Virus record (IMG/VR): IMGVR_UViG_3300045988_009603 | Origin: a virus | Lineage: Duplodnaviria > Heunggongvirae > Uroviricota > Caudoviricetes | Direction: 5' to 3' (one strand) | DNA length: 64,000 nucleotides | In this document: one piece after another, positions 2,573 to 19,590 of the stretch | Position numbering within the stretch: the first letter of the stretch is position 1 | Layout: each line of letters begins with the position of its first letter | The notes under the pieces: generated by a model | The model's database searches: none | Seen by the model: only the letters and a program-made list of their open reading frames with translations | Told to the model about the DNA's origin: nothing | Program-made: the position numbers and the translations under genes

Positions 2573-2608
2573 TATGTTTTCTCCAAATAGTTAACCATGT
2601 TTCCCCTT

Positions 2609-2632
2609 AAAAAAGACGGTACAGAGACCGTC
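2609..2632 (-). terminator. rho-independent terminator at distal end of tRNA operon
   Basis: minus-strand hairpin GACGGUCUCUGUACCGUC followed by U6. Confidence 0.6.
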
Positions 2633-2794
2633 AAGGAGAAACCACAATGTACGTCAGAGACATACTGTATAAGGCTTCTTATAAAGTATAACTCTGTAAA
2701 AAAGCCCTGTCTAAAAATACTCTTCGGTAGCGAAAGGAAGAATACTTATAGCAGGGCATTATTATTATTTTAATTGAGAGAGAGTAAAATAACT

Positions 2795-2870
2795 TGGAGA
2801 ATCCGAAGGGACTCGAACCCTTATAAACCTGTTTTGCAGACAGGCACATAGCCATTTCTGTCACGGATTC
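2795..2870 (-). tRNA. tRNA-Cys (anticodon GCA)
   Basis: anticodon stem-loop CCTGT-CTGCAAA-ACAGG; T-loop TTCGAGT; U73 discriminator; CCA encoded. Confidence 0.75.
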
Positions 2871-2874
2871 AAAT

Positions 2875-2967
2875 TGGAGGAAGATACCAGACTTGAACTG
2901 GTACACCGATTTCTCAGCTACTGGCAGTTTAGCAAACTGCTCCCTTACCTTTTAGGGTTAATCTTCC
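2875..2967 (-). tRNA. tRNA-Ser (anticodon GCU), long variable arm
   Basis: acceptor GGAAGAT/ATCTTCC; anticodon loop TGCTAAA; T-loop GTTCAAGTC; about 93 nt. Confidence 0.75.
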
Positions 2968-2968
2968 A

Positions 2969-3703
2969 TTATTTCTGTAATGCGTTCTTCATTTCTGGTG
3001 TTGCAATAGTGTCGATTACACCAGTTTTACAAGCATCATCAAACCAGTCTGGTAAGATACCTGCTAAGAACCCATTGATATTCGTTTTAAGGTACTCTGC
3101 AATAAGGGCAGTTTCTTCTTCAATCATCTGCACAACTTCATCTGCATAAGCTGTAATCTTCGAGATACCTTCATTAATCTTACTAACAGCTTGGTTAGCT
3201 AAATCAGAAATAGTATCAAGACCTTTATCAATAGCATCCTGTAAGTCGCTTAATACATCATTAACGCCATCTAGTGTACTGTTAATTGTATCCATAGCTT
3301 TTTGACCATACTCTGTAGCAACACCCATAATACCACTAAATGGTGTACAACCAACTTGCTCTCCTGCTGCACCCATAACATTAGAGTAGCCTTTTGCTAC
3401 CTGCATACGTGATGAAAACTCATCAATGGACTTTTGACCATAATCTGTCAGTGTCTTAGTAGTTGATGTAGTGCTTGTCAGACTCGTTGTAAAGCTATTA
3501 AGCAGAACTGTTGTAAGTCCAGCAGCAATAAGCTTATCCTTTATTGTGGGGTCTGTTACAGAGCTAATAGAGCTTACAAGTGATGTAGAGGCAGCTACGG
3601 TTCCACCTAGAACTGCTGCACCAGTAATAAGGGGATTAGAAAACCCTCTACCGGTTTTTAAGAGATTAAAAATCTCCTTACCTTGTTCTGTCATCTCTTT
3701 CAT
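2969..3703 (-). CDS. hypothetical protein embedded in tRNA cluster
   Basis: ORF track 2969..3766; internal start MKEMTEQ at 3703 preferred because upstream part overlaps tRNA-Phe; Thr/Ser-rich, no recognised domain. Confidence 0.5.
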   Translation of the reverse strand: MKEMTEQGKEIFNLLKTGRGFSNPLITGAAVLGGTVAASTSLVSSISSVTDPTIKDKLIAAGLTTVLLNSFTTSLTSTTSTTKTLTDYGQKSIDEFSSRMQVAKGYSNVMGAAGEQVGCTPFSGIMGVATEYGQKAMDTINSTLDGVNDVLSDLQDAIDKGLDTISDLANQAVSKINEGISKITAYADEVVQMIEEETALIAEYLKTNINGFLAGILPDWFDDACKTGVIDTIATPEMKNALQK

Positions 3704-3719
3704 TAAGCACCTTTGAAAT

Positions 3720-3795
3720 TGGTAGTCCAGTGGGATTTGAACCCTCTTCTCATGTTTTTCAGACACGCGCTTTAACCATATAAGCTACTTGGACT
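3720..3795 (-). tRNA. tRNA-Phe (anticodon GAA)
   Basis: anticodon loop CTGAAAA; T-loop TTCAAAT; A73; T-stem has one non-WC pair so boundaries +/-2. Confidence 0.6.
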
Positions 3796-3801
3796 ATAAA
3801 T

Positions 3802-3877
3802 TGGGGTGACCTACGGGATTTGAACCCGTATAGACCATGTTCACAGCATGGGTCATTACCATTTATGATAAGGCCAC
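3802..3877 (-). tRNA. tRNA-His (anticodon GUG)
   Basis: anticodon stem CCATG/CATGG, loop CTGTGAA; T-arm ACGGG-TTCAAAT-CCCGT. Confidence 0.8.
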
Positions 3878-3908
3878 ATTTAAGGACTCTCGTAAGAACC
3901 CTTAGAAG

Positions 3909-3984
3909 TGGCAGCGGCATAAGGATTTGAACCTTAATAAGACAGCTTCAGAGACTGCTGCATTGCCAGTTATGCTATACCGCT
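3909..3984 (-). tRNA. tRNA-Gln (anticodon CUG)
   Basis: standard cloverleaf, D-stem GCAT/ATGC, anticodon loop CTCTGAA. Confidence 0.65.
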
Positions 3985-3989
3985 AAATT

Positions 3990-4068
3990 TGGTACTCCAT
4001 ATCGGATTCGAACCGATACATAACACAGATTTTAAGTCTGGCCTCTCTGCCAATTGGAGTAATGGAGC
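3990..4068 (-). tRNA. tRNA with anticodon UAA (Leu isoacceptor by anticodon), short variable arm
   Basis: anticodon loop CTTAAAA; D-loop CAATTGGCAGA; A73; T-arm ATCGG-TTCGAAT-CCGAT. Confidence 0.5.
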
Positions 4069-4070
4069 AT

Positions 4071-4146
4071 TGGCGGGGGATGTTGGAATTGAACCAACTT
4101 CTTCGATTTCAAAGACCGAGGTTTTAACCTTGTAAACTAATCCCCT
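4071..4146 (-). tRNA. tRNA-Gln (anticodon UUG)
   Basis: anticodon stem TCGGT/ATCGA, loop CTTTGAA; T-arm GTTGG-TTCAATT-CCAAC. Confidence 0.6.
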
Positions 4147-4154
4147 TTAAATCT

Positions 4155-4712
4155 TTACTTCCTTAGTGGATGAATAAAGAATGCCAACATAACTCTTTCC
4201 CTTGAGAATGCTCTTTCTTCTGGGACAACACTTTTAAGTTTCCATCCAACATAAATTCTCCAGTAGAATTGTTTACCAAAGACTTTAATTGATGGGATAA
4301 AGGCGAATAACCCCCAAGCATTACTGTTCCACATTAGGAGATAACCTGTCTGATTATCTTCATGGTCAGAACTTACGTTGATATTACCTTTCCACTTAGT
4401 AACATCTTTTACATCTCTTCCTAACACATGGTAAGAGAAGTTATAAGCTTTGTTTCTCCAGAGCCATCCAACTCTCTGCAAATAGACACCAAGCTTACCA
4501 ATCTTTCTAATCTTAGCCCATCTTTTAACGTGACCTTCATCACCATCAATTGGGTTGTCATATGTCTCCATCCATCTGAATCCAAAAGGTAGATGTCCTT
4601 TCTTCTCACTATAGAATGGAACTACAAAAGGTGCTAAGATAACTGCTAAGATTGCTGCCAATGGGTCTAGCAAAGCTAGGAAAATCCATGAAGCATACTT
4701 CAAATATCTCAT
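4155..4712 (-). CDS. hypothetical membrane protein embedded in tRNA cluster
   Basis: 185 aa ORF; hydrophobic N-terminus IFLALLDPLAAILAVILAPFVVPF; Trp-rich. Confidence 0.5.
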   Translation of the reverse strand: MRYLKYASWIFLALLDPLAAILAVILAPFVVPFYSEKKGHLPFGFRWMETYDNPIDGDEGHVKRWAKIRKIGKLGVYLQRVGWLWRNKAYNFSYHVLGRDVKDVTKWKGNINVSSDHEDNQTGYLLMWNSNAWGLFAFIPSIKVFGKQFYWRIYVGWKLKSVVPEERAFSRERVMLAFFIHPLRK

Positions 4713-4731
4713 TTAAATAGCCTCTTTAAAT

Positions 4732-4807
4732 TGGCGCAGGATAAGGGATTCGAACCCCTATTAACAGCTTCGTAGACTGTTGCTCTATCCATTTGAACTA
4801 ATCCTGC
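4732..4807 (-). tRNA. tRNA-Arg (anticodon ACG)
   Basis: acceptor GCAGGAT/ATCCTGC; anticodon loop CTACGAA; T-loop TTCGAAT. Confidence 0.75.
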
Positions 4808-4812
4808 AAAAT

Positions 4813-4890
4813 TGGTGTTCCAAGACGGATTCGAACCGTCACTAGTACAAGGTTTGAGCTTGCATCCTCTGCCAATTGGGATACTGGAAC
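4813..4890 (-). tRNA. tRNA with anticodon CAA (Leu isoacceptor by anticodon), short variable arm
   Basis: anticodon stem GCAAG/CTTGT, loop CTCAAAC; D-loop CAATTGGCAGA; A73. Confidence 0.5.
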
Positions 4891-4891
4891 A

Positions 4892-4966
4892 TGGTACTCA
4901 CTAAAGGACTTGAACCTTTTTCTTCATCTTGTAAGGGTGATGTTTTACCATATAAACTAAGCGAGT
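4892..4966 (-). tRNA. tRNA-Val (anticodon UAC)
   Basis: anticodon loop CTTACAA; T-arm AAAGG-TTCAAGT-CCTTT; one C-A mismatch in anticodon stem. Confidence 0.6.
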
Positions 4967-5061
4967 ATGAAAGAGGTCTGAAGTTGTGCCGCTAACTCAA
5001 CTCCGTGGAATTTGTTACGGTCTTCAGTTGACACCAGCGGTCTTTCACTTGACCTCTGAAT
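4967..5061 (-). ncRNA. structured non-tRNA spacer (pseudoknot-like crossed helices)
   Basis: no T-loop motif; crossed complementarities CTGAAG/CTTCAG and GCCGCT/AGCGGT plus outer GAGGTC/GACCTC. Confidence 0.3.
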
Positions 5062-5138
5062 TGGTGCTGCTCACAGGACTCGAACCTGCATTTCCATCCT
5101 TACAAGGGATGTGTAATAGCCAATTATACGAAAGCAGC
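5062..5138 (-). tRNA. tRNA-Thr (anticodon UGU)
   Basis: anticodon stem CATCC/GGATG, loop CTTGTAA; T-arm GCAGG-TTCGAGT-CCTGT. Confidence 0.8.
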
Positions 5139-5139
5139 A

Positions 5140-5553
5140 TTAAACTTTTATGATACCAGCATGTACTTTTCTGTGACAGTTAGCGCACAAGACAATGCAC
5201 TTTCTGATTTCATCTTTTAATCTTTTTGTGGAGTATGAATAAAGTGATGCAGGATTCAAATCTTTCTGGGAAGGGTCTGTATGGTGTAAATCCAATGCAA
5301 CTGGTTCTTTCTCACCACATATATGACATTTGCATAAAGCTTTGTACCTTCTAGCTAGAGTCTTGTTATACTCTCTCTTGAAGTTACGAGTACTTTTAAT
5401 AGCCTCTTTCCTTTTATCATTTGCTTGATAACTCTTTGCATCACGAAGTCTTGCACAGTCTTTGCATTGACTTTGAAGACCATCTTTCTTGTTCTTATTC
5501 TTATGGAATAAGCTTTCATCTTTTGGTATTCTGCAAGTACTGCATATTTTCAT
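5140..5553 (-). CDS. HNH endonuclease embedded in tRNA cluster
   Basis: 137 aa; Cys-rich, LDLHHTDP...CANCHRKVH HNH motif. Confidence 0.75.
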   Translation of the reverse strand: MKICSTCRIPKDESLFHKNKNKKDGLQSQCKDCARLRDAKSYQANDKRKEAIKSTRNFKREYNKTLARRYKALCKCHICGEKEPVALDLHHTDPSQKDLNPASLYSYSTKRLKDEIRKCIVLCANCHRKVHAGIIKV

Positions 5554-5567
5554 ATCACACCTTAATT

Positions 5568-5642
5568 TGGAGCATCCAGAGGGAATCGAACCCTCAACCT
5601 CAGTTTGGAAGACTGTAATTTTCCCGTTTAAACTATGGATGC
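5568..5642 (-). tRNA. tRNA-Gly (anticodon UCC)
   Basis: acceptor GCATCCA/TGGATGC; anticodon loop CTTCCAA; T-loop TTCGATT. Confidence 0.7.
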
Positions 5643-5648
5643 ACTAAT

Positions 5649-5724
5649 TGGTGGAGTCACTGAGAATTGAACTCAGTTACCGAGTTTGCAAAACTCGAAT
5701 TTTAACCATATAAACTATGACCCC
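5649..5724 (-). tRNA. tRNA-Ala (anticodon UGC)
   Basis: anticodon stem CGAGT/ACTCG, loop TTTGCAA; G3-U70 pair in acceptor stem. Confidence 0.8.
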
Positions 5725-5730
5725 AATGTT

Positions 5731-5806
5731 TGGTACAGGTGGAGGGAATTGAACCCATCGTCTTACTGATTAAGAGTCAGCCGCATAACCATTTTGCTAC
5801 ACCTGC
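5731..5806 (-). tRNA. tRNA-Lys (anticodon CUU)
   Basis: anticodon loop CTCTTAA; paralogous to the UUU copy at 6957-7032; T-stem only GGG/CCC. Confidence 0.6.
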
Positions 5807-5813
5807 ATTAATT

Positions 5814-5891
5814 TGGTAGGAGACAAGGGATTCGAACCCTCAAACACCAACTTCTAAGGATGGTAGGTTTACCAATTACCGTCAATCTCCC
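5814..5891 (-). tRNA. tRNA with anticodon UAG (Leu isoacceptor by anticodon), short variable arm
   Basis: anticodon loop CTTAGAA (stem has U-U mismatch); T-arm GAGGG-TTCGAAT-CCCTT; D-loop TAATTGGTAAA. Confidence 0.45.
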
Positions 5892-5966
5892 ATTAAATCT
5901 TTTTAGAGAACTTCTAAGAACCTAAGCAACAAGGTTCCACAACAAGCTGTAATAACCTTAGAAGCC

Positions 5967-5990
5967 CTCTAAAAAGACCTAAATAGGTCT
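5967..5990 (-). terminator. internal terminator-like hairpin in tRNA operon spacer
   Basis: minus-strand AGACCUAUUUAGGUCU followed by U5. Confidence 0.45.
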
Positions 5991-6146
5991 TTGCATAGTC
6001 TTGTTTAATCCGGTGACTAGAACCTTTGGAGAGCTTGATATTATCTCTTCTCCGTGACACCTACTAGGTGCTTTATCAGTGTGTACGACAATACACGAGG
6101 GATACCAAAGCAACATCCGAATGAAGCTTGGCTTTAAATCTTATTA

Positions 6147-6236
6147 GGCGGTAAGTAAAGGAGTCGAACCCTCACCGTATCTCTACAGTGGCAACAGTTT
6201 TCAAGACTGTTTGGCTGCCATTAGCCGCTACCTACC
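6147..6236 (-). tRNA. tRNA-Ser (anticodon UGA), long variable arm
   Basis: anticodon stem ACAGT/ACTGT, loop CTTGAAA; about 90 nt; G73; 3' CC encoded, terminal A not. Confidence 0.7.
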
Positions 6237-6249
6237 CCTAATAAGACTT

Positions 6250-6332
6250 TGGCATGGGACGGAGGAGTTGAACCCCTTTGAAACGGTTTTGGAGGCCGTT
6301 GCTCATGCCTTAGAGTCTTAACATCGTCCCAC
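6250..6332 (-). tRNA. tRNA-Trp-like (anticodon CCA) with extra nucleotides between acceptor stem and D-stem
   Basis: anticodon arm ACGGC-CUCCAAA-ACCGU resembles E. coli tRNA-Trp; acceptor GTGGGAC/GTCCCAT; about 7 nt longer than canonical. Confidence 0.45.
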
Positions 6333-6474
6333 ACTATAATTCGAAGCTTACCGTATTTTCGCAACACTGTAAAGCCCCTTCTCAGATTATTTACATGTTC
6401 TGGAAAACATGAGATACAGACCACCTCCTTACACGGAGACCCGATAAGGTCGTCTAAGCAATCTGCTAACTATT

Positions 6475-6551
6475 TGGCACACCCTACAGGATTCGAACCT
6501 GTAACTAACGATTTAGAAGACCGTTGCTCTATCCAATTGAACTAAGGGTGC
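6475..6551 (-). tRNA. tRNA-Arg (anticodon UCU)
   Basis: canonical D-arm GTTC-AATTGGATA-GAGC; anticodon loop CTTCTAA. Confidence 0.8.
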
Positions 6552-6798
6552 ATTAATCTTTAAAGACTCTCTTAGAAAGCCCTTAAAGATGCCCACCTTA
6601 TTAATCATACCGTGGGCGAGTACGCCAAATTCTTTGATGAGGGATTGGAAGACCTCACTGGTGTTTAGCCTATCAAGCTACTGCCAGAAAAACATTGTCG
6701 TTTGCATTTATTTTAAATTTGCAAAATAGACGCTACGCAACGAAAACTAAGGTTACTATAAAGTGGTCACATGTTAATGTCAACAACTTTATTGAAAT

Positions 6799-6874
6799 TG
6801 GTACTGGTAGGTGGAATCGAACCACCGATGTTCCCTTATCAGGGGAGTGTTATAACCTTCTTAACTATACCAGC
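6799..6874 (-). tRNA. tRNA-Ile (anticodon GAU)
   Basis: anticodon loop CTGATAA; T-arm GGTGG-TTCGATT-CCACC. Confidence 0.8.
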
Positions 6875-6875
6875 T

Positions 6876-6952
6876 TGGAGGTTCAGATGGGAATCGAACC
6901 CACATTCATAGGGCTTATGAGACCCCTGCATTACCTTATCTGCGACTGAACC
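6876..6952 (-). tRNA. tRNA-Met (anticodon CAU; elongator Met or Ile2 not distinguishable)
   Basis: acceptor GGTTCAG/CTGAACC; anticodon loop CTCATAA. Confidence 0.7.
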
Positions 6953-6956
6953 ATAT

Positions 6957-7032
6957 TGGTAGAAGTGGAGGGATTCGAACCCATCGCCTGTCAGATTAAA
7001 AGTCTGCCGCATCACCATTCTGCTACACTTCC
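6957..7032 (-). tRNA. tRNA-Lys (anticodon UUU)
   Basis: anticodon loop CTTTTAA; same unusual T-stem as the CUU copy. Confidence 0.65.
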
Positions 7033-7179
7033 ATTAAATTATCTTTGTAGATAAGCTACCCAGACTTGCTTAAGGTCTGTAGCGATGTGCTTTGTTGGGT
7101 TTAAATCTAGAATTTACCCTTTCACCCTTTGTGGTCGCATACTCACAGGTAAGCTTAATAACTTATCTACAAAGATAAT

Positions 7180-7316
7180 TACCAGACCGTTGTTTATCAT
7201 CTTAAGTGCTACCATTACACCAACTCGACATCTGCCGAGTGAAGGAATCGAACCTTCGCCTTTTCTTTACCGGAGAAATAGATTGTTTAAGTTTTGCTGT
7301 AAACGGTCTTCTGTAA
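7180..7316 (-). ncRNA. tRNA-like element with permuted arm order, enclosed by a terminal inverted repeat
   Basis: minus strand reads terminal stem AGACCGUU, T-arm GAAGG-UUCGAUU-CCUUC, ACUCGGC, AGAU, GUCGAGU, D-arm-like GUGUAAUGGUAGCAC, closing AACGGUCU; no canonical 5'-to-3' cloverleaf. Confidence 0.3.
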
Positions 7317-7490
7317 ATTTGTTGAGCCAGACCAAGTTTTAAATTTTTTCAAAATTAAATTGGCTTGAAAATATCATACGTACTTGCTGAATTTGGTCTT
7401 CTGCTCCTTTAAAGAATACTCGTAAGAACTCTTTAAGGGAGGGGCTAAATAGCCCTCTCAAAACATCATCTTGAAATACTTATTATAATT

Positions 7491-7568
7491 TGGCGGTTAC
7501 GAAGGGATTTGAACCCTCATCATCTCCCGTGACAGGGGAGTATTTTAACCAGATTAAACTACATAACC
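7491..7568 (-). tRNA. tRNA-Asp (anticodon GUC)
   Basis: anticodon stem CTCCC/GGGAG, loop CTGTCAC; G73. Confidence 0.85.
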
Positions 7569-7574
7569 TTTATT

Positions 7575-7662
7575 TGGTGTGCCGTGTAGGAGTCGAACCT
7601 ACCGAGTCTCAATGACAAGGGATTTACAGTCCCCACCGCTACCATCTACGGGATAACGACAC
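7575..7662 (-). tRNA. tRNA-Tyr (anticodon GUA), long variable arm
   Basis: anticodon loop CTGTAAA; T-arm GTAGG-TTCGACT-CCTAC; about 88 nt. Confidence 0.8.
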
Positions 7663-7671
7663 ATTTAAATT

Positions 7672-7748
7672 TGGCGGTTAGTCAGGGATTCGAACCCTGT
7701 GCCATTCGCTTAACAGGCGACCGCACATACCTTATGTGCTTCCTAACC
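7672..7748 (-). tRNA. tRNA-Asn (anticodon GUU)
   Basis: D-stem GCAC/GTGC; anticodon loop CTGTTAA. Confidence 0.8.
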
Positions 7749-7825
7749 TTAATACATTGCCAGACCGTGTTTTTTCTTTTATCCGCAAAAAGTAGTTTGT
7801 TGCTGCATACGGTCTTCTGCAAAAT

Positions 7826-7902
7826 TGGAGGCGGGTGCAGGAGTCGAACCTGCCGATACCATGCTAATGAGACATGTGAGACGCCCTTTCTCTATACCCG
7901 CA
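7826..7902 (-). tRNA. tRNA with anticodon CAU (second Met-type; initiator or Ile2 possible)
   Basis: anticodon loop CTCATTA; T-arm GCAGG-TTCGACT-CCTGC; 1:72 mismatch. Confidence 0.55.
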
Positions 7903-7993
7903 ATTCTTAATGACCAGACCAAATATCTTCTTTGTCCGATTTATCTTCAGATGAATAAGATTAAGTTTGCTGCAATTGGTCTTCTGTCAAAAC

Positions 7994-8071
7994 TGGCGTT
8001 CCAGAAGGGATTTGAACCCTCAAATATCCACTTTGAAAGAGTGGTGACTTTACCGTTTTGTCTACTGGAAC
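7994..8071 (-). tRNA. tRNA-Glu (anticodon UUC)
   Basis: anticodon stem CCACT/AGTGG, loop CTTTCAA; acceptor GTTCCAG/CTGGAAC. Confidence 0.85.
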
Positions 8072-8078
8072 ATTAATT

Positions 8079-8155
8079 TGGTCTCTGTTGGAGGACTTGA
8101 ACCTCCGGCCTTACCGCCCCAAACGGAACGCTCTACCAAGCTGAGCTAAACAGAG
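8079..8155 (-). tRNA. tRNA-Pro (anticodon UGG)
   Basis: canonical D-arm GCTC-AGCTTGGTA-GAGC; anticodon loop TTTGGGG. Confidence 0.75.
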
Positions 8156-8181
8156 ATAAACTTTTCAAACTCTATGTAACC

Positions 8182-8211
8182 ACTTTAACATTATTTTTTA
8201 GTGGTTGTCAA
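8182..8211 (-). promoter_or_regulatory. putative sigma70-like promoter of tRNA operon
   Basis: minus strand TTGACA-N18-TAAAGT, A/T-rich upstream; about 25 nt upstream of tRNA-Pro 5' end. Confidence 0.45.
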
Positions 8212-8270
8212 GAACTTTTTTAAAATATTTTCAGTATCTTAGAAAAGCTCTCATTTCGTTTCTATGTAGA

Positions 8271-8311
8271 ACATATTAAAGGGTATCAAACACATTGTCA
8301 ATACCCTTTTT
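8271..8311. terminator. bidirectional terminator-like hairpin downstream of the vWA gene
   Basis: GGGTAT-N14-ATACCC flanked by T-runs on both strands. Confidence 0.45.
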
Positions 8312-8319
8312 AAAACTTT

Positions 8320-9735
8320 TTACCAGATGTAACGGTCAATCATTACTGCTTTGAGCATTACGCTGGTTGGGTCAAACTTCTCACCACCAAGCAGAGCTTT
8401 TAAAGTGGCTGGAGAGAACCCTGATACCATCGCTACACCATTATCCTTAACAGATACTTCGCAAGTACCATTACGGTTTGCTAAGTACCAGAATACTAGT
8501 TGTGGCATTTCGTACCCAGCTTTTTTGTACTTACTCTGAATTGCTTCAAAGTTTGTACGACCATTTGCACCATCAACCTGATTAAACTCCATATCAGAGA
8601 AGATAATAAGCTTACTTGGCATATCTTTCTGAGTCAAGTTGTTTCTCTTACCTACCTCAAGAATACGGTCAAAAGCTGCTTGTAAGTTAGTTGAACCATA
8701 TTCAACATGACGCATTACCTGACGATGACGGTTTCGTAAATCACCACTCAGTTCAATGAAATGAGGGTTTGTTGAATAGACCATTAACTCATCTTTAAAG
8801 CAACCTGTATTGCGTTCTGCTACATACAAGGCAAGTGATACACCAATATCAAGGGCAGTAATTGAGCCAAGATTCACCCAAGACATTGAGCTTGAAACAT
8901 CAGTCATACACAAGATGTTTTCACCTTCTGCCATCCAGTTTGGTAGTGCTTTCCACTGCTCATTAGCAACATCTGCATTACCATACTTGATAGATTTAAT
9001 CACATCGTATGGGTAAACAGCACCAGCGTTAATCTTGGCCTCACCTTTTGAGAGGGACTCGATGTAAGCTTTATAACGTTCCCCATCTTTACGGTTAAAG
9101 AGTTTTTGGTAACGTGCAGCAGCGAGTGAAGGAATCTTGCTGTAGTCAATCTTACCAAACTCATTAGCAGAGATTTTTTGCTCAACCGTATCAGACAGTG
9201 CAGATAACAGTGTGCGGTACTCTTTCTCGCTTAAGTTTGCAAACTTGCAGAAACGTTTTACAAACTGTTTGTGGCGTGGTTTTACTCGTGGCAACCACTT
9301 AGCTGCTAAACCTGCTGTTGCAGGGTCTAGTAATGCTGCTTCTAAATGTTTGAAGGCATCCGTCTCAAAGCGAGTACCTACGAAGATTTTGAAGTCATCA
9401 AAACGACCAAGTTCTGCAATCTTGTCCATAATGCGAAGAACCTGTGTAGGTTCTAAAACTTTATCTTCAATTGCTTGAAGTAAAACAGTTCGGAAAGCTT
9501 TACGCTCACCCATACCTTCTCGTACATCTCGCATATGCAGTAAAATACGAACTGCAACATCAACATCCTCACGCAAAGCTTTGTAGAACAGGTCTGGTAA
9601 GATTTCTACATTGCTACGGCTTGAGCCAGCGGCTTTGTAAAAGTCTACCAGAGCAGACATTGATGAAGTATGGTTTACAGCACCATTTTCAGTTCGACCT
9701 GCATGAAGGTGCGCATGTTTAAATAACTCGCTCAT
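8320..9735 (-). CDS. von Willebrand factor A (vWA) domain protein with alpha-helical N-terminal domain
   Basis: 471 aa; MIDAS-like DVSSSMS motif about residue 275. Confidence 0.65.
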   Translation of the reverse strand: MSELFKHAHLHAGRTENGAVNHTSSMSALVDFYKAAGSSRSNVEILPDLFYKALREDVDVAVRILLHMRDVREGMGERKAFRTVLLQAIEDKVLEPTQVLRIMDKIAELGRFDDFKIFVGTRFETDAFKHLEAALLDPATAGLAAKWLPRVKPRHKQFVKRFCKFANLSEKEYRTLLSALSDTVEQKISANEFGKIDYSKIPSLAAARYQKLFNRKDGERYKAYIESLSKGEAKINAGAVYPYDVIKSIKYGNADVANEQWKALPNWMAEGENILCMTDVSSSMSWVNLGSITALDIGVSLALYVAERNTGCFKDELMVYSTNPHFIELSGDLRNRHRQVMRHVEYGSTNLQAAFDRILEVGKRNNLTQKDMPSKLIIFSDMEFNQVDGANGRTNFEAIQSKYKKAGYEMPQLVFWYLANRNGTCEVSVKDNGVAMVSGFSPATLKALLGGEKFDPTSVMLKAVMIDRYIW

Positions 9736-19552: not shown

Positions 19553-19590
19553 GTAAAGGTATCTGGGGCTATTTAGCCCCGTTGCGTCGA

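Follow-up and report, generated by a model that had tools for sequence, protein, structure and literature searches.

Transfer-messenger RNA (tmRNA) is textbook biology and is thought to act only as a single molecule or as a self-encoded pair of RNAs uniting a tRNA-like part with an mRNA-like part. Full-length tmRNAs have been described in mycobacteriophages and in Bacillus phage G, and a form consisting of the tRNA-like domain (TLD) only has been described in mycobacteriophage DS6A (PMC4131195, PMC11915505). The mirror image of the DS6A form, keeping only the tag half, is not among the phage tmRNAs in the accessible literature. Such an RNA is predicted here from the sequence of a 64,000-nt stretch of viral DNA (IMG/VR record IMGVR_UViG_3300045988_009603, hereafter the window). 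The element, a tmRNA-like RNA without TLD ('headless tmRNA') of ~158 nt, is located at 6591-6748 on the minus strand and carries a 5' arm complementary to the tmRNA (ssrA) of the host. No description of it was found in the accessible literature, subscription-only papers being outside the search.

The window belongs to a Felixounavirus (Felix O1-like myovirus), and many E. coli and Salmonella phages match it over 4700-7100 at 95-98% identity. ARAGORN predicted 26 tRNA genes at 2795-8155, all on the minus strand, and therefore every RNA discussed here is read on that strand. No tRNA was called in four gaps of this operon, 4967-5061, 5892-6146, 6237-6474 and 6552-6798, which contain segments 1 to 4, respectively. 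An earlier note, made from the sequence alone, had proposed that 4967-5061, 5892-6146, 6333-6474 and 6552-6798 lack tRNAs and can encode small stable RNAs. The ARAGORN result agrees with the first point, and all four segments are kept across Ounavirinae genera. An Rfam search, suggested in the note as a check, was run, and no family reached its gathering score within the gaps. The minus strand folds more stably than shuffled sequences, with z = -2.86 in segment 1, -2.79 in segment 2 and -4.33 in segment 4, but with no more than z = -1.28 in 6237-6474. From their sequences, the four segments do look like small RNA genes and not filler. The general idea of the note therefore holds, and 6552-6798 appears clearly to be an RNA gene with its own promoter; the specific evidence put forward for the idea fails, as described below. 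The note had overlooked what mainly distinguishes 6552-6798: its sigma-70 promoter, the pseudoknots and tag frame of tmRNA type, and the arm directed against the host tmRNA.

Promoter and tag reading frame of the tmRNA-like RNA

Segment 4 contains a sigma-70-type promoter, TTGACA-17-TATAGT (6755-6783), which matches the consensus at 11 of 12 positions and is the best in the region 2600-8600. The start of transcription is predicted at ~6748/6747, the A/G of AGUUUUCG. The RNA begins with a conserved GUUUUCG, and promoters are found at an equal distance from GUUUUCG in the Kolesnikvirus, T5-like and siphovirus copies of the element. Behind the 5' arm lies an A/U-rich linker (6706-6719) that, as read directly from the aligned copies, ends in AUAAAU right before a resume-like codon. 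The sequence ATAAAT-GCA is invariant among 42 representatives. The linker U at -5 and A at -4 correspond to U85/A86 of E. coli ssrA, whose role in tmRNA function we take as given.

The tag frame at 6673-6705 reads GCA AAC GAC AAU GUU UUU CUG GCA GUA GCU UGA and would encode ANDNVFLAVA, which has 10 residues like the E. coli ssrA tag ANDENYALAA. It has no in-frame start codon, and an in-frame UAG lies 10 codons upstream in the window; across the copies the distance to the in-frame stop is 8-10 codons. The tags of other copies include ANDDVVLMAA, ANEEMYLAVA and ANDEQFLAVA, and together with that of the window 18 peptide variants were found, all of 10 residues and all of the form AN[DE]xxxL[AMI][AV]A. 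Across 31 distinct nucleotide versions of 10 codons each, the entropy of the tag frame is 4.93, 4.64 and 9.93 bits at the three codon positions, and synonymous codon differences number 683 in this frame versus 25 and 145 in the other two. Because of this third-position excess and the distribution of synonymous differences, the tag frame behaves like a translated sequence. Amino acid exchanges among the tags are conservative (D/E, F/Y, A/V). These codon data give clear indications of purifying selection at the codon level. An AUG in the +1 frame (AUAA AUG CAA...) was considered as an alternative translation start and rejected, as that frame has only 25 synonymous differences and the AUG is absent from one copy (ACUG in locus L006). 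The element thus combines a start-less frame beginning at a GCA resume codon, a hydrophobic C-terminal ...AA/VA end and coding selection, as a tmRNA does.

Secondary structure and relation to tmRNA families

Covariation was evaluated in the 42 representatives, which share <90% identity, with helix partners slid by 1-3 columns and 500 shuffles as controls. Paired cells amount to 92.5%, compared with 29-48% in the slid controls. Changes on both sides were observed for 13 of the 22 pairs, and none of the 500 shuffles matched the observed pairing or covariation. The tag frame ends in a hairpin resembling helix 5 of tmRNA (6658-6687; CUGG...CCAG), which is 99.4% paired and carries the stop codon in its apical part. 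Its closing pair is G-C in 25 sequences and A-U in 17 (CUGG/CCAG versus CUGA/UCAG). It is followed by pseudoknot a (6625-6657), in which the loop CCAA of the stem UGAGG/CCUCA pairs with a downstream UUGG. The two helices are 95.2% and 90.5% paired, with double compensatory changes at three of five pairs in one and at all four pairs in the other.

Pseudoknot b (6591-6624), identified by covariation and by reading the alignment, interleaves CGUACU/GGUAUG with GCCCAC/GUGGGC and has the conserved loop AUUAAUAA. The CGUACU/GGUAUG helix is 95.2% paired, with four of six pairs doubly changed. The second stem, as read from the alignment, varies in length and occurs as GCCCAC/GUGGGC, GCCC/GGGC, GGCGGGAG/CUCCCGUC, CCCUGA/UCAGGG and GUCCCCG/CGGGGA. 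Double changes affect 11 pairs of the two H-type pseudoknots together. A tag stop placed in a hairpin (helix 5) and followed by pseudoknots is characteristic of tmRNA, the pseudoknots here being two instead of the usual three. A fold of the 5' domain resembling pseudoknot 1 (PK1) of tmRNA was rejected, since it shows no covariation and the antisense arm explains this region better.

Rfam tmRNA models gave sub-threshold matches exactly at the element in every locus tested. The scores are 27.2 bits for RF04321 (gathering score 47), 8.9 for RF00023 (47), 10.4 for RF01849 (50) and up to 21.8 for RF01850 (84), so that none of the tmRNA models matched reaches its curated score. The best of these matches is to tmRNA_permuted, to whose tag region the tag start aligns with high posterior probability. 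Recent capture of a host ssrA gene was rejected as an origin, because sharing in the sense orientation with E. coli ssrA is limited to GCAAACGAC. The anatomy, conservation, covariation and coding selection described above, like the complementarity described below, are read from the sequences, and by these features the element is very likely a tmRNA derivative that lacks the TLD.

Predicted pairing of the 5' arm with host tmRNA

The 5' arm (6720-6748), AGUUUUCGUUGCGUAGCGUCUAUUUUGCA, is antisense to nt 77-105 of E. coli ssrA, with which it is predicted by RNAduplex to form 23 bp at -26.0 kcal/mol. Arm pairing was computed in this way against E. coli ssrA (363 nt) only. The target reaches from the end of PK1 over the A-rich linker, which holds U85/A86, and the resume codon G90-C91 to tag codons 2-5; the PK1 boundaries, the requirement for U85/A86 and the single-strandedness of ssrA nt 79-106 are assumed here. 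The 5'-terminal GUUUUCG is near-invariant, occurring in 59 of the 61 distinct arms while codons 3-5 of each RNA itself vary, and complements nt 98-104 of E. coli ssrA (tag codons 3-5) without a mismatch. Further along the arm, the conserved block GCGAC complements nt 87-91 (UC of the leader and GC of the resume codon), and the one after it, GCGG, complements nt 75-78 (3' strand of PK1). The order of the blocks is collinear with ssrA and antiparallel.

With the whole ssrA as target, the best duplex of 10 of the 12 sequence types ends at nt 105/106, or at 139 for the Kuttervirus type, and starts at nt 54-56 or 76-80. Long arms (start at 54-56) pair at -40 to -48 kcal/mol with z of -2.7 to -6.3. 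When all 61 distinct arms were paired with nt 45-115, the duplexes ended at 98-106, and 58 of them at 105/106. The 61 arms have a mean free energy of -39 kcal/mol when paired with host ssrA, compared with -15 when each is paired with the message domain of its own RNA. Eight other RNAs of the window (segments 1-3 and spacer units) served as controls and gave z of -0.9 to +0.5, by which they were excluded as ssrA-complementary RNAs. The arm therefore appears, by computed pairing, to have an extended and conserved complementarity to a single site in one host RNA beyond chance, as antisense RNAs have. Pairing by the short arms ends where PK1 ends on its 3' side, so the phage leader and GCA would emerge where the host leader does; long arms additionally invade PK1. 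On this evidence, the phage RNA probably pairs with the host tmRNA.

Distribution and genomic context

A sensitive BLAST search with segment 4 retrieved 596 GenBank phage records, of which ~340 are not Felix-like. The non-Felix matches have 72-82% identity over the central 95-125 nt only and include Kuttervirus (157 kb), siphoviruses of 46-62 kb, a lambdoid Enterobacter phage, Kolesnikvirus and a 110-kb Klebsiella phage. Overall, the element is carried by Felixounavirus, Kolesnikvirus, Kuttervirus, T5-like phages, 46-62 kb siphoviruses and lambdoid prophages, all of Enterobacterales. An exact-pattern scan found it in more than 120 IMG/VR contigs. Among complete E. coli genomes, 137 of 5426 carry the element, with no annotated feature beneath it. 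Only 6 of 185,579 species-representative genomes carry it; four are Enterobacterales (two Rosenbergiella, one Pantoea and one Pseudocitrobacter), and the other two matches lie on Advenella and Flavobacterium contigs of 48 and 81 kb, which we suspect to be phage DNA.

The genomic contexts are diverse. In some phages the element is part of a tRNA cluster, and in Kuttervirus it lies close to tRNAs, within 2 kb of sequence lacking annotation. Siphoviruses have it between tail genes, on the opposite strand and with its own promoter, and lambdoid prophages between the Q antiterminator and holin genes. This distribution fits a host-directed module.

Lack of a tRNA-like domain

ARAGORN found no tmRNA in the window or at seven other loci containing the element. 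A TLD, looked for as a 7-bp acceptor stem with G3:U70, a T-arm, a discriminator and CCA, was not found. A pattern scan for T-arm, acceptor and NCCA around ~120 copies returned mostly real tRNAs and a few lineage-specific oddities, none of them common to the carrier families. The copies in lytic phages have their promoter immediately before the GUUUUCG 5' end. Pseudoknot b is followed in the window by a 16-bp hairpin (AUCUUUAAGGGCUUUC-UAA-GAGAGUCUUUAAAGAU; 6556-6590), which ends four nt before tRNA-Arg(UCU), and in siphoviruses and prophages by long-stem modules. With a promoter abutting the 5' end, a hairpin flanking the 3' end and neither TLD nor partner found, the RNA is therefore read as a tmRNA reduced to its message half.

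Two arrangements that would supply the missing half were rejected. A permuted tmRNA layout was discarded, because the T-arm aligned by RF04321 belongs to tRNA-Ile, the promoter lies in between, and siphovirus copies have upstream nothing but the promoter. The CGAAAAU of segment 3 can pair with GUUUUCG but is unconserved in Moogle, SUSP1 and EcoM2. No complementarity to the element longer than 12 nt was found anywhere in the 64-kb window.

Several tRNA-like RNAs were observed near copies of the element. The phages Moogle, Sf19 and SUSP1 encode an RNA of 120-121 nt (829-949 of L136, 385-505 of L137 and 1038-1157 of L138, respectively) that has no counterpart in the window and lies between tRNA-Arg(UCU) and the segment 3 homologue. 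It has a 7-bp acceptor GGUCAAG/CUUGACU, a T-arm with UUCAACU or UUCGACU, a GCCA end and an insert of ~85 nt with AACGAAAG, and could be a TLD-only or Y-RNA-like molecule. EcoM2 (reverse strand, 2440-2521 of L133) and at least eight other Felixounavirus loci have an 82-nt tRNA-like RNA, undetected by ARAGORN, that replaces tRNA-Arg(UCU) at the position of the tRNA-Arg of the window (6475-6551). This RNA has the acceptor CGGGGCG/CGCCUCG and, as alanine identity features, G3:U70 and A73 with CCA. Its anticodon loop contains UCU, its variable arm is long and a D-arm is missing; it may be a recoding or decoy tRNA. In the tRNA cluster of Erwinia phage Omen, also an Ounavirinae cluster, a non-standard 'tRNA-???' (244-316 of L007) has a 6-nt anticodon loop and G3:U70 in its acceptor, an alanine identity feature.

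The long-stem modules flank the element in siphoviruses and lambdoid prophages (2612-2690 of L004; 2915-2990 and 3330-3425 of L132; ~2385-2455 of L002). They have the form CACAACAGGUAAGAGCAYU, a variable insert and AGUGCUCUUUCCGUUGUG, and the insert sometimes contains a perfect T-arm, such as GUAGAG-UUCGACU-CUCUAC. These modules may be RNase III sites or a further family of tRNA-like RNAs.

Possible mechanism and alternative explanations

The features of the element can be brought together in one scheme. The promoter-driven ~158-nt RNA would dock by its 5' arm on the host tmRNA-SmpB, and the duplex between the arm and ssrA would bury the resume signal and tag template of the host. The phage leader and resume codon would end up where those of the host normally leave PK1, and ribosomes rescued via the alanyl tRNA-like domain of the host would resume on the phage tag ANDNVFLAVA. 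Pairing of the phage RNA with host tmRNA in the cell and the exchange of templates are the inferred parts of this scheme. A tmRNA-like message RNA that docks on host tmRNA and swaps its template is the best explanation of the element as a whole, and we regard it as having an even chance of being correct. Template replacement as such, in which the viral RNA anneals to the message region of host tmRNA and substitutes its own resume codon and tag, and does so as a module mobile across at least six unrelated enterobacterial-phage lineages, is proposed tentatively, at slightly under an even chance. Tags ending in ...LVA are strong ClpXP degrons, and the phage tags keep the AAND... and the hydrophobic ...L[AM][AV]A ends; by analogy, the phage tag is therefore probably still a ClpXP degron.

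Several points weigh against this scheme. The pairing is a computational prediction. The statistic of the Felix-type short arm is modest (z = -2.2; 5 of 150 shuffles as good), and the T5-like arm has its best duplex on full-length ssrA elsewhere, targeting 80-105 only under restricted search. The Kolesnikvirus (Erwinia phage) arm UGCUUCUAUUUUU mismatches E. coli ssrA nt 88-89; this arm predicts, from its sequence, ...AAAAAUAG[A/G][A/G]GCA in the host tmRNA. Trading one degron-like tag for another has no evident benefit, and a 23-45 bp intermolecular helix may not fit the path of tmRNA on the ribosome. The long duplex could instead be a substrate of RNase III. The CCA-ended non-canonical tRNA-like RNAs near some copies also make a phage-encoded partner possible.

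Among the alternatives, a purely anti-tmRNA function survives best. The arm would block tagging or guide RNase III cleavage of host ssrA, shutting down trans-translation, and the tmRNA-like 3' part would be untranslated and serve only for stability or for binding tmRNA-associated proteins. Complementarity to ssrA of up to ~45 bp speaks for this function, and a ~45-bp duplex is long enough for RNase III. A precedent is available in the TLD-only tmRNA of mycobacteriophage DS6A, which is reported to inhibit tmRNA (PMC4131195). However, the tag frame is under protein-level selection, as indicated by the entropy excess, the 683 versus 25/145 synonymous differences, the fixed length of 10 codons and the conservative exchanges, and the AUAAAU-GCA resume context is invariant. 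An untranslated decoy would need neither, which counts against this explanation, and we consider it unlikely.

The element could also be the coding piece of a two-piece tmRNA encoded entirely by the phage, with a separate phage tRNA-like RNA supplying the acceptor and T-arm. Natural two-piece tmRNAs exist, and tmRNA_permuted gives the best sub-threshold Rfam match. Odd tRNA-like RNAs encoding CCA occur 130-560 nt downstream in several families, one of them with G3:U70 and A73; the candidates are the CCA-ended RNA at 6250-6334 (see below), the GCCA-ended 121-nt RNA of Moogle-like phages and the 82-nt G3:U70/A73 RNA of EcoM2-like phages. However, no partner is common to the carrier families, and the siphovirus and lambdoid copies have no recognisable one. 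The window offers no complementary partner above 12 nt, and the CGAAAAU of segment 3 is not kept in relatives. Moreover, nucleotides complemented by the arm (UAGUC|GC and the PK1 strand) are specific to the host and absent from the phage RNAs. A phage-encoded two-piece tmRNA is accordingly quite improbable.

A last alternative would make the element an ordinary short mRNA, a tmRNA pseudogene in decay or a functionless spacer, the segments being processing spacers of the tRNA operon. For it speak the AUG that in most copies overlaps the resume codon (+1 frame), the need of tRNA operons for spacers and processing hairpins, and the 16-bp hairpin directly following the element. Against it, the AUG frame has 25 synonymous differences versus 683 and lacks its AUG in L006, no Shine-Dalgarno sequence is present, and compensatory changes conserve the structure across unrelated phage families and in prophages outside tRNA operons. 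We consider this alternative very improbable.

If docking on host tmRNA and template replacement are true, the element would be the first split tmRNA built from host and viral RNA, and no virus would have been seen before to reprogram the tagging in trans-translation. It would represent a new viral route to taking over translation quality control, spread through hundreds of phages and prophages. The carriers infect E. coli, Salmonella, Klebsiella, Erwinia and relatives, with horizontal transfer of the element. With its tag frame and its arm against host tmRNA, the element points to interference with the ribosome rescue of the host by hundreds of phages of enterobacteria. It would also account for conserved sequence between genes in phages much used for therapy and typing (Felix O1, Kuttervirus, T5-like), and, if the mechanism holds, could serve as a model from nature for directing tmRNA tagging to new ends. 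Should the antisense part alone be functional, the element would still be the first natural anti-tmRNA RNA.

Other structured RNAs and genes of the tRNA operon

Segment 1 encodes an irregular hairpin RNA of ~86 nt (4972-5057) between tRNA-Thr and tRNA-Val. The earlier note had described crossed helices at 4980-5040; the fold is instead one nested irregular hairpin. Its internal loop CUGAAGA and apical loop AACAAAUUCC are unvarying, and it is 96-100% identical in Felixounavirus, Mooglevirus and Suspvirus although the neighbouring spacers diverge. A homologue with 81% identity is found in the Vequintavirinae phage TH18, not within a tRNA cluster, with both loops unchanged and the outer stem kept by two-sided change (AGAGGUC/GACCUCU to AGAUGUC/GACAUCU). 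A search with a degenerate segment 1 pattern returned mostly chance matches. By the conservation of its sequence and stem, segment 1 is considered a real and mobile structured RNA.

Segment 2 begins with a 5' hairpin (6104-6132) that is kept while its sequence varies, occurring as GCCAAGC...GCUUUGGU, GCUGGCGCUCG...CGUUAGGU and CCCACGCUCUGG...CAGCGUUCGG. Its core (5970-6100; ~130 nt) is near-invariant in four genera and consists of four short hairpins, ending in AAAGACC-UAUUUA-GGUCUUU and UU; both flanks of the core vary. The hairpin GTGTA-CGACAA-TACAC seen by the earlier reader is present as GTGTACGACAATACAC at 6081-6096. The final stem of the core changes by wobble and its loop freely. The 3' part (5893-5969), by minimum free energy folding, is a long variable hairpin, kept while its sequence diverges. 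Its long-range pair, CTTCTAAG at 5911-5918 with CTTAGAAG at 5957-5964, lies within 1-3 nt of where it had been placed before. The 3' arm of this hairpin is the tRNA-preceding motif described below, and the hairpin can pair alternatively with the U-tract of the preceding terminator-like hairpin. Small ORFs (open reading frames) of 45-67 aa in segments 2 and 3 were rejected, as start codons and frames are unconserved (in segment 2, the ATG is lost and a 2-nt indel occurs).

A terminator-like element had been proposed in the operon, together with a hairpin with a CUAAAUAG loop that recurs with covarying stems at 7441-7456 and, on the opposite strand, at 19566-19581. The first hairpin, AGACCTAAATAGGTCT, is indeed present at 5975-5990. 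At 5970-5991 the transcribed strand has a 7-bp stem with three G-C pairs, followed by five U, three of which lie in the stem; the stem and U5 are kept in four genera, but a terminator scan reported no match there, and we regard this hairpin-U5 as weakly terminator-like. The recurrence does not hold as a motif. The copy at 7441-7456 reads GGGGCTAAATAGCCCT and ends in ...CCCT rather than ...CCCC. The 8-mer CTAAATAG has 5 copies in the window versus 3.1 +/- 1.6 expected, a count attained in 19 of 100 shuffles. Of the hairpin at 5975-5990, only the stem and following U5 are kept in Moogle, Sf19 and SUSP1, and the loop is free to change (UAUUUA / GUUUA / AAUA / AGUUA). The two operon copies read ...CUAUUUAG... 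in the RNA, CUAAAUAG being on the non-transcribed strand, and the 19566 copy, just 3' of a minus-strand ORF, reads CUAAAUAG; with respect to transcription it runs the other way, so that the copies do not make up one RNA motif. Chance frequency, free loop and inconsistent orientation together rule the motif out.

Segment 3 (6335-6474) is kept in Felixounavirus, Mooglevirus and Suspvirus and contains a long hairpin at 6416-6466 and, as had been reported, the hairpin CAUGUU-N6-AACAUG, at 6394-6411. Next to it, 6250-6334 encodes a non-canonical tRNA-like RNA with an acceptor-type stem of 8-10 bp ending in GCCA, a T-loop UUCAACU and a 9-nt 'anticodon' loop CCUCCAAAA. The earlier note had counted 6237-6332 as a tRNA. 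ARAGORN makes no call there, the best Rfam match is tRNA-Sec with 23 bits versus a gathering score of 47, and the 9-nt loop does not suit a tRNA. Homologues in Moogle and Pectobacterium phage Wc4-1 keep the stems despite sequence change (AACGG/CCGUU versus GUAGG/CCUAC). A motif GG(G/U)UUCUUA(C/A)GAGAGUCUUUAAAGAUUAAU forms the 3' arm of A/U-rich hairpins at 3878-3908, 5892-5925, 6552-6590 and 7400-7440 (minus strand). It lies immediately 5' of a tRNA in three of these four copies and also occurs after the element in Erwinia phage Omen; it is probably a processing signal, or may be a phage-specific signal.

Four spacer units bounded by CAGAAGACC(R)...(Y)GGUCUGG are located at 7185-7316, 7329-7405, 7760-7822 and 7915-7988 (minus strand). 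The first has a T-arm-like hairpin (GAAGGUUCGAUUCCUUC) followed by a D-arm-like stretch, with a weak Rfam tRNA match (22 bits, 7240-7290), and is reminiscent, by analogy, of a permuted tRNA-like module resembling YrlA Y RNAs. Similar elements, GAAGACC/CAGACC, are present in segment 1. Directly upstream of the tRNA operon, a 471-aa ORF (8320-9735, minus strand) encodes a protein that matches Pfam DUF2828 and DUF7788 and PHROG 850 ('RNA-binding protein'); it is annotated elsewhere as vWFA protein, and no match was found among PDB sequences. Its Bas63 orthologue, gp130, is reported to be structurally Ro60-like and proposed to counter a defence system called ppl, and the same preprint suggests that some 'tRNAs' are Y RNAs (PMC11482910). 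Segments 1-3, judged from their sequences, are conserved structured RNAs, presumably cut from the same precursor as the tRNAs, and may include partners of the adjacent Ro60-like protein. They make it more likely that the tRNA clusters of phages serve as a reservoir for non-coding RNAs yet to be characterised, in this case beside a Ro60-like protein.

Homing-endonuclease ORFs of HNH or endonuclease VII type are also found between the tRNAs (5140-5553, minus strand, in the window; 738-1142 of L137; 1414-1818 of L138). Their positions of insertion differ among relatives, and much of the variation in operon length is due to these insertions.

Comparison with known systems

The tRNA cluster of T4 encodes the stable RNAs species 1/2 (rnaC/rnaD). 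Like these, segments 1-3 are non-tRNA RNAs within a phage tRNA operon, presumably released by tRNA-processing enzymes, the likeness being one of description only. E. coli O157 prophages encode the anti-sRNAs AgvB and AsxR, trans-acting antisense RNAs directed against small RNAs (sRNAs). Like AgvB and AsxR, the tmRNA-like RNA is predicted to base-pair with a specific host non-coding RNA, and its lambdoid copies lie in the late-operon leader region. It differs from them in that the predicted target is tmRNA and not an Hfq-dependent sRNA, and in having pseudoknots and a tag frame that looks translated; neither an Hfq site nor a terminator was identified for it.

The YrlA Y RNAs bound by Ro60/Rsr (PMC4201824) resemble the operon in that a Ro60-like gene lies upstream and several spacer units combine a closing stem with tRNA-like arms. 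Unlike YrlA, the units gave no Rfam Y-RNA match at E <= 5, and the Rsr-binding GNCGAAN0-1G was not seen in the window units by reading, no dedicated model having been built. This comparison concerns 6250-6334 and 7033-7990, not the tmRNA-like RNA.

Like the TLD-only tmRNA of DS6A, a truncated half reported to interfere with host tmRNA (PMC4131195), the element is a phage-borne tmRNA derivative. DS6A, however, keeps the tRNA-like half without the tag, whereas the element keeps the tag half without the tRNA-like half and adds an antisense arm. The DS6A, mycobacteriophage and Bacillus phage G systems belong to hosts and phage families other than those described here.

Compared with bacterial tmRNA (ssrA; RF00023, clan CL00001), the phage RNA shares the A-rich leader with U-5/A-4, the GCA resume codon, a start-less AND...A tag of the E. 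coli length, the stop in a helix-5 hairpin and pseudoknots after the frame. It lacks the acceptor stem, T-arm, CCA and helix 2, and therefore cannot be charged or enter the A site alone. It also differs in having two downstream pseudoknots instead of three, a length of ~158 nt versus 363 nt, an antisense arm in place of the 5' tRNA-like strand and PK1, and scores of 9-28 bits versus gathering scores of 47-84.

As in the two-piece (permuted) tmRNAs of alpha- and beta-proteobacteria and cyanobacteria, the message part is on an RNA separate from part of the tRNA-like domain. The pieces of a two-piece tmRNA are joined by base pairing, and such joining is predicted for the phage RNA. In a two-piece tmRNA, the acceptor piece lies just upstream in the same precursor and the coding piece keeps the 5' acceptor strand, whereas the phage RNA has a promoter upstream. 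The two-piece tmRNA pairs with its own acceptor piece, whereas the predicted partner of the phage RNA is the complete tmRNA of the host.

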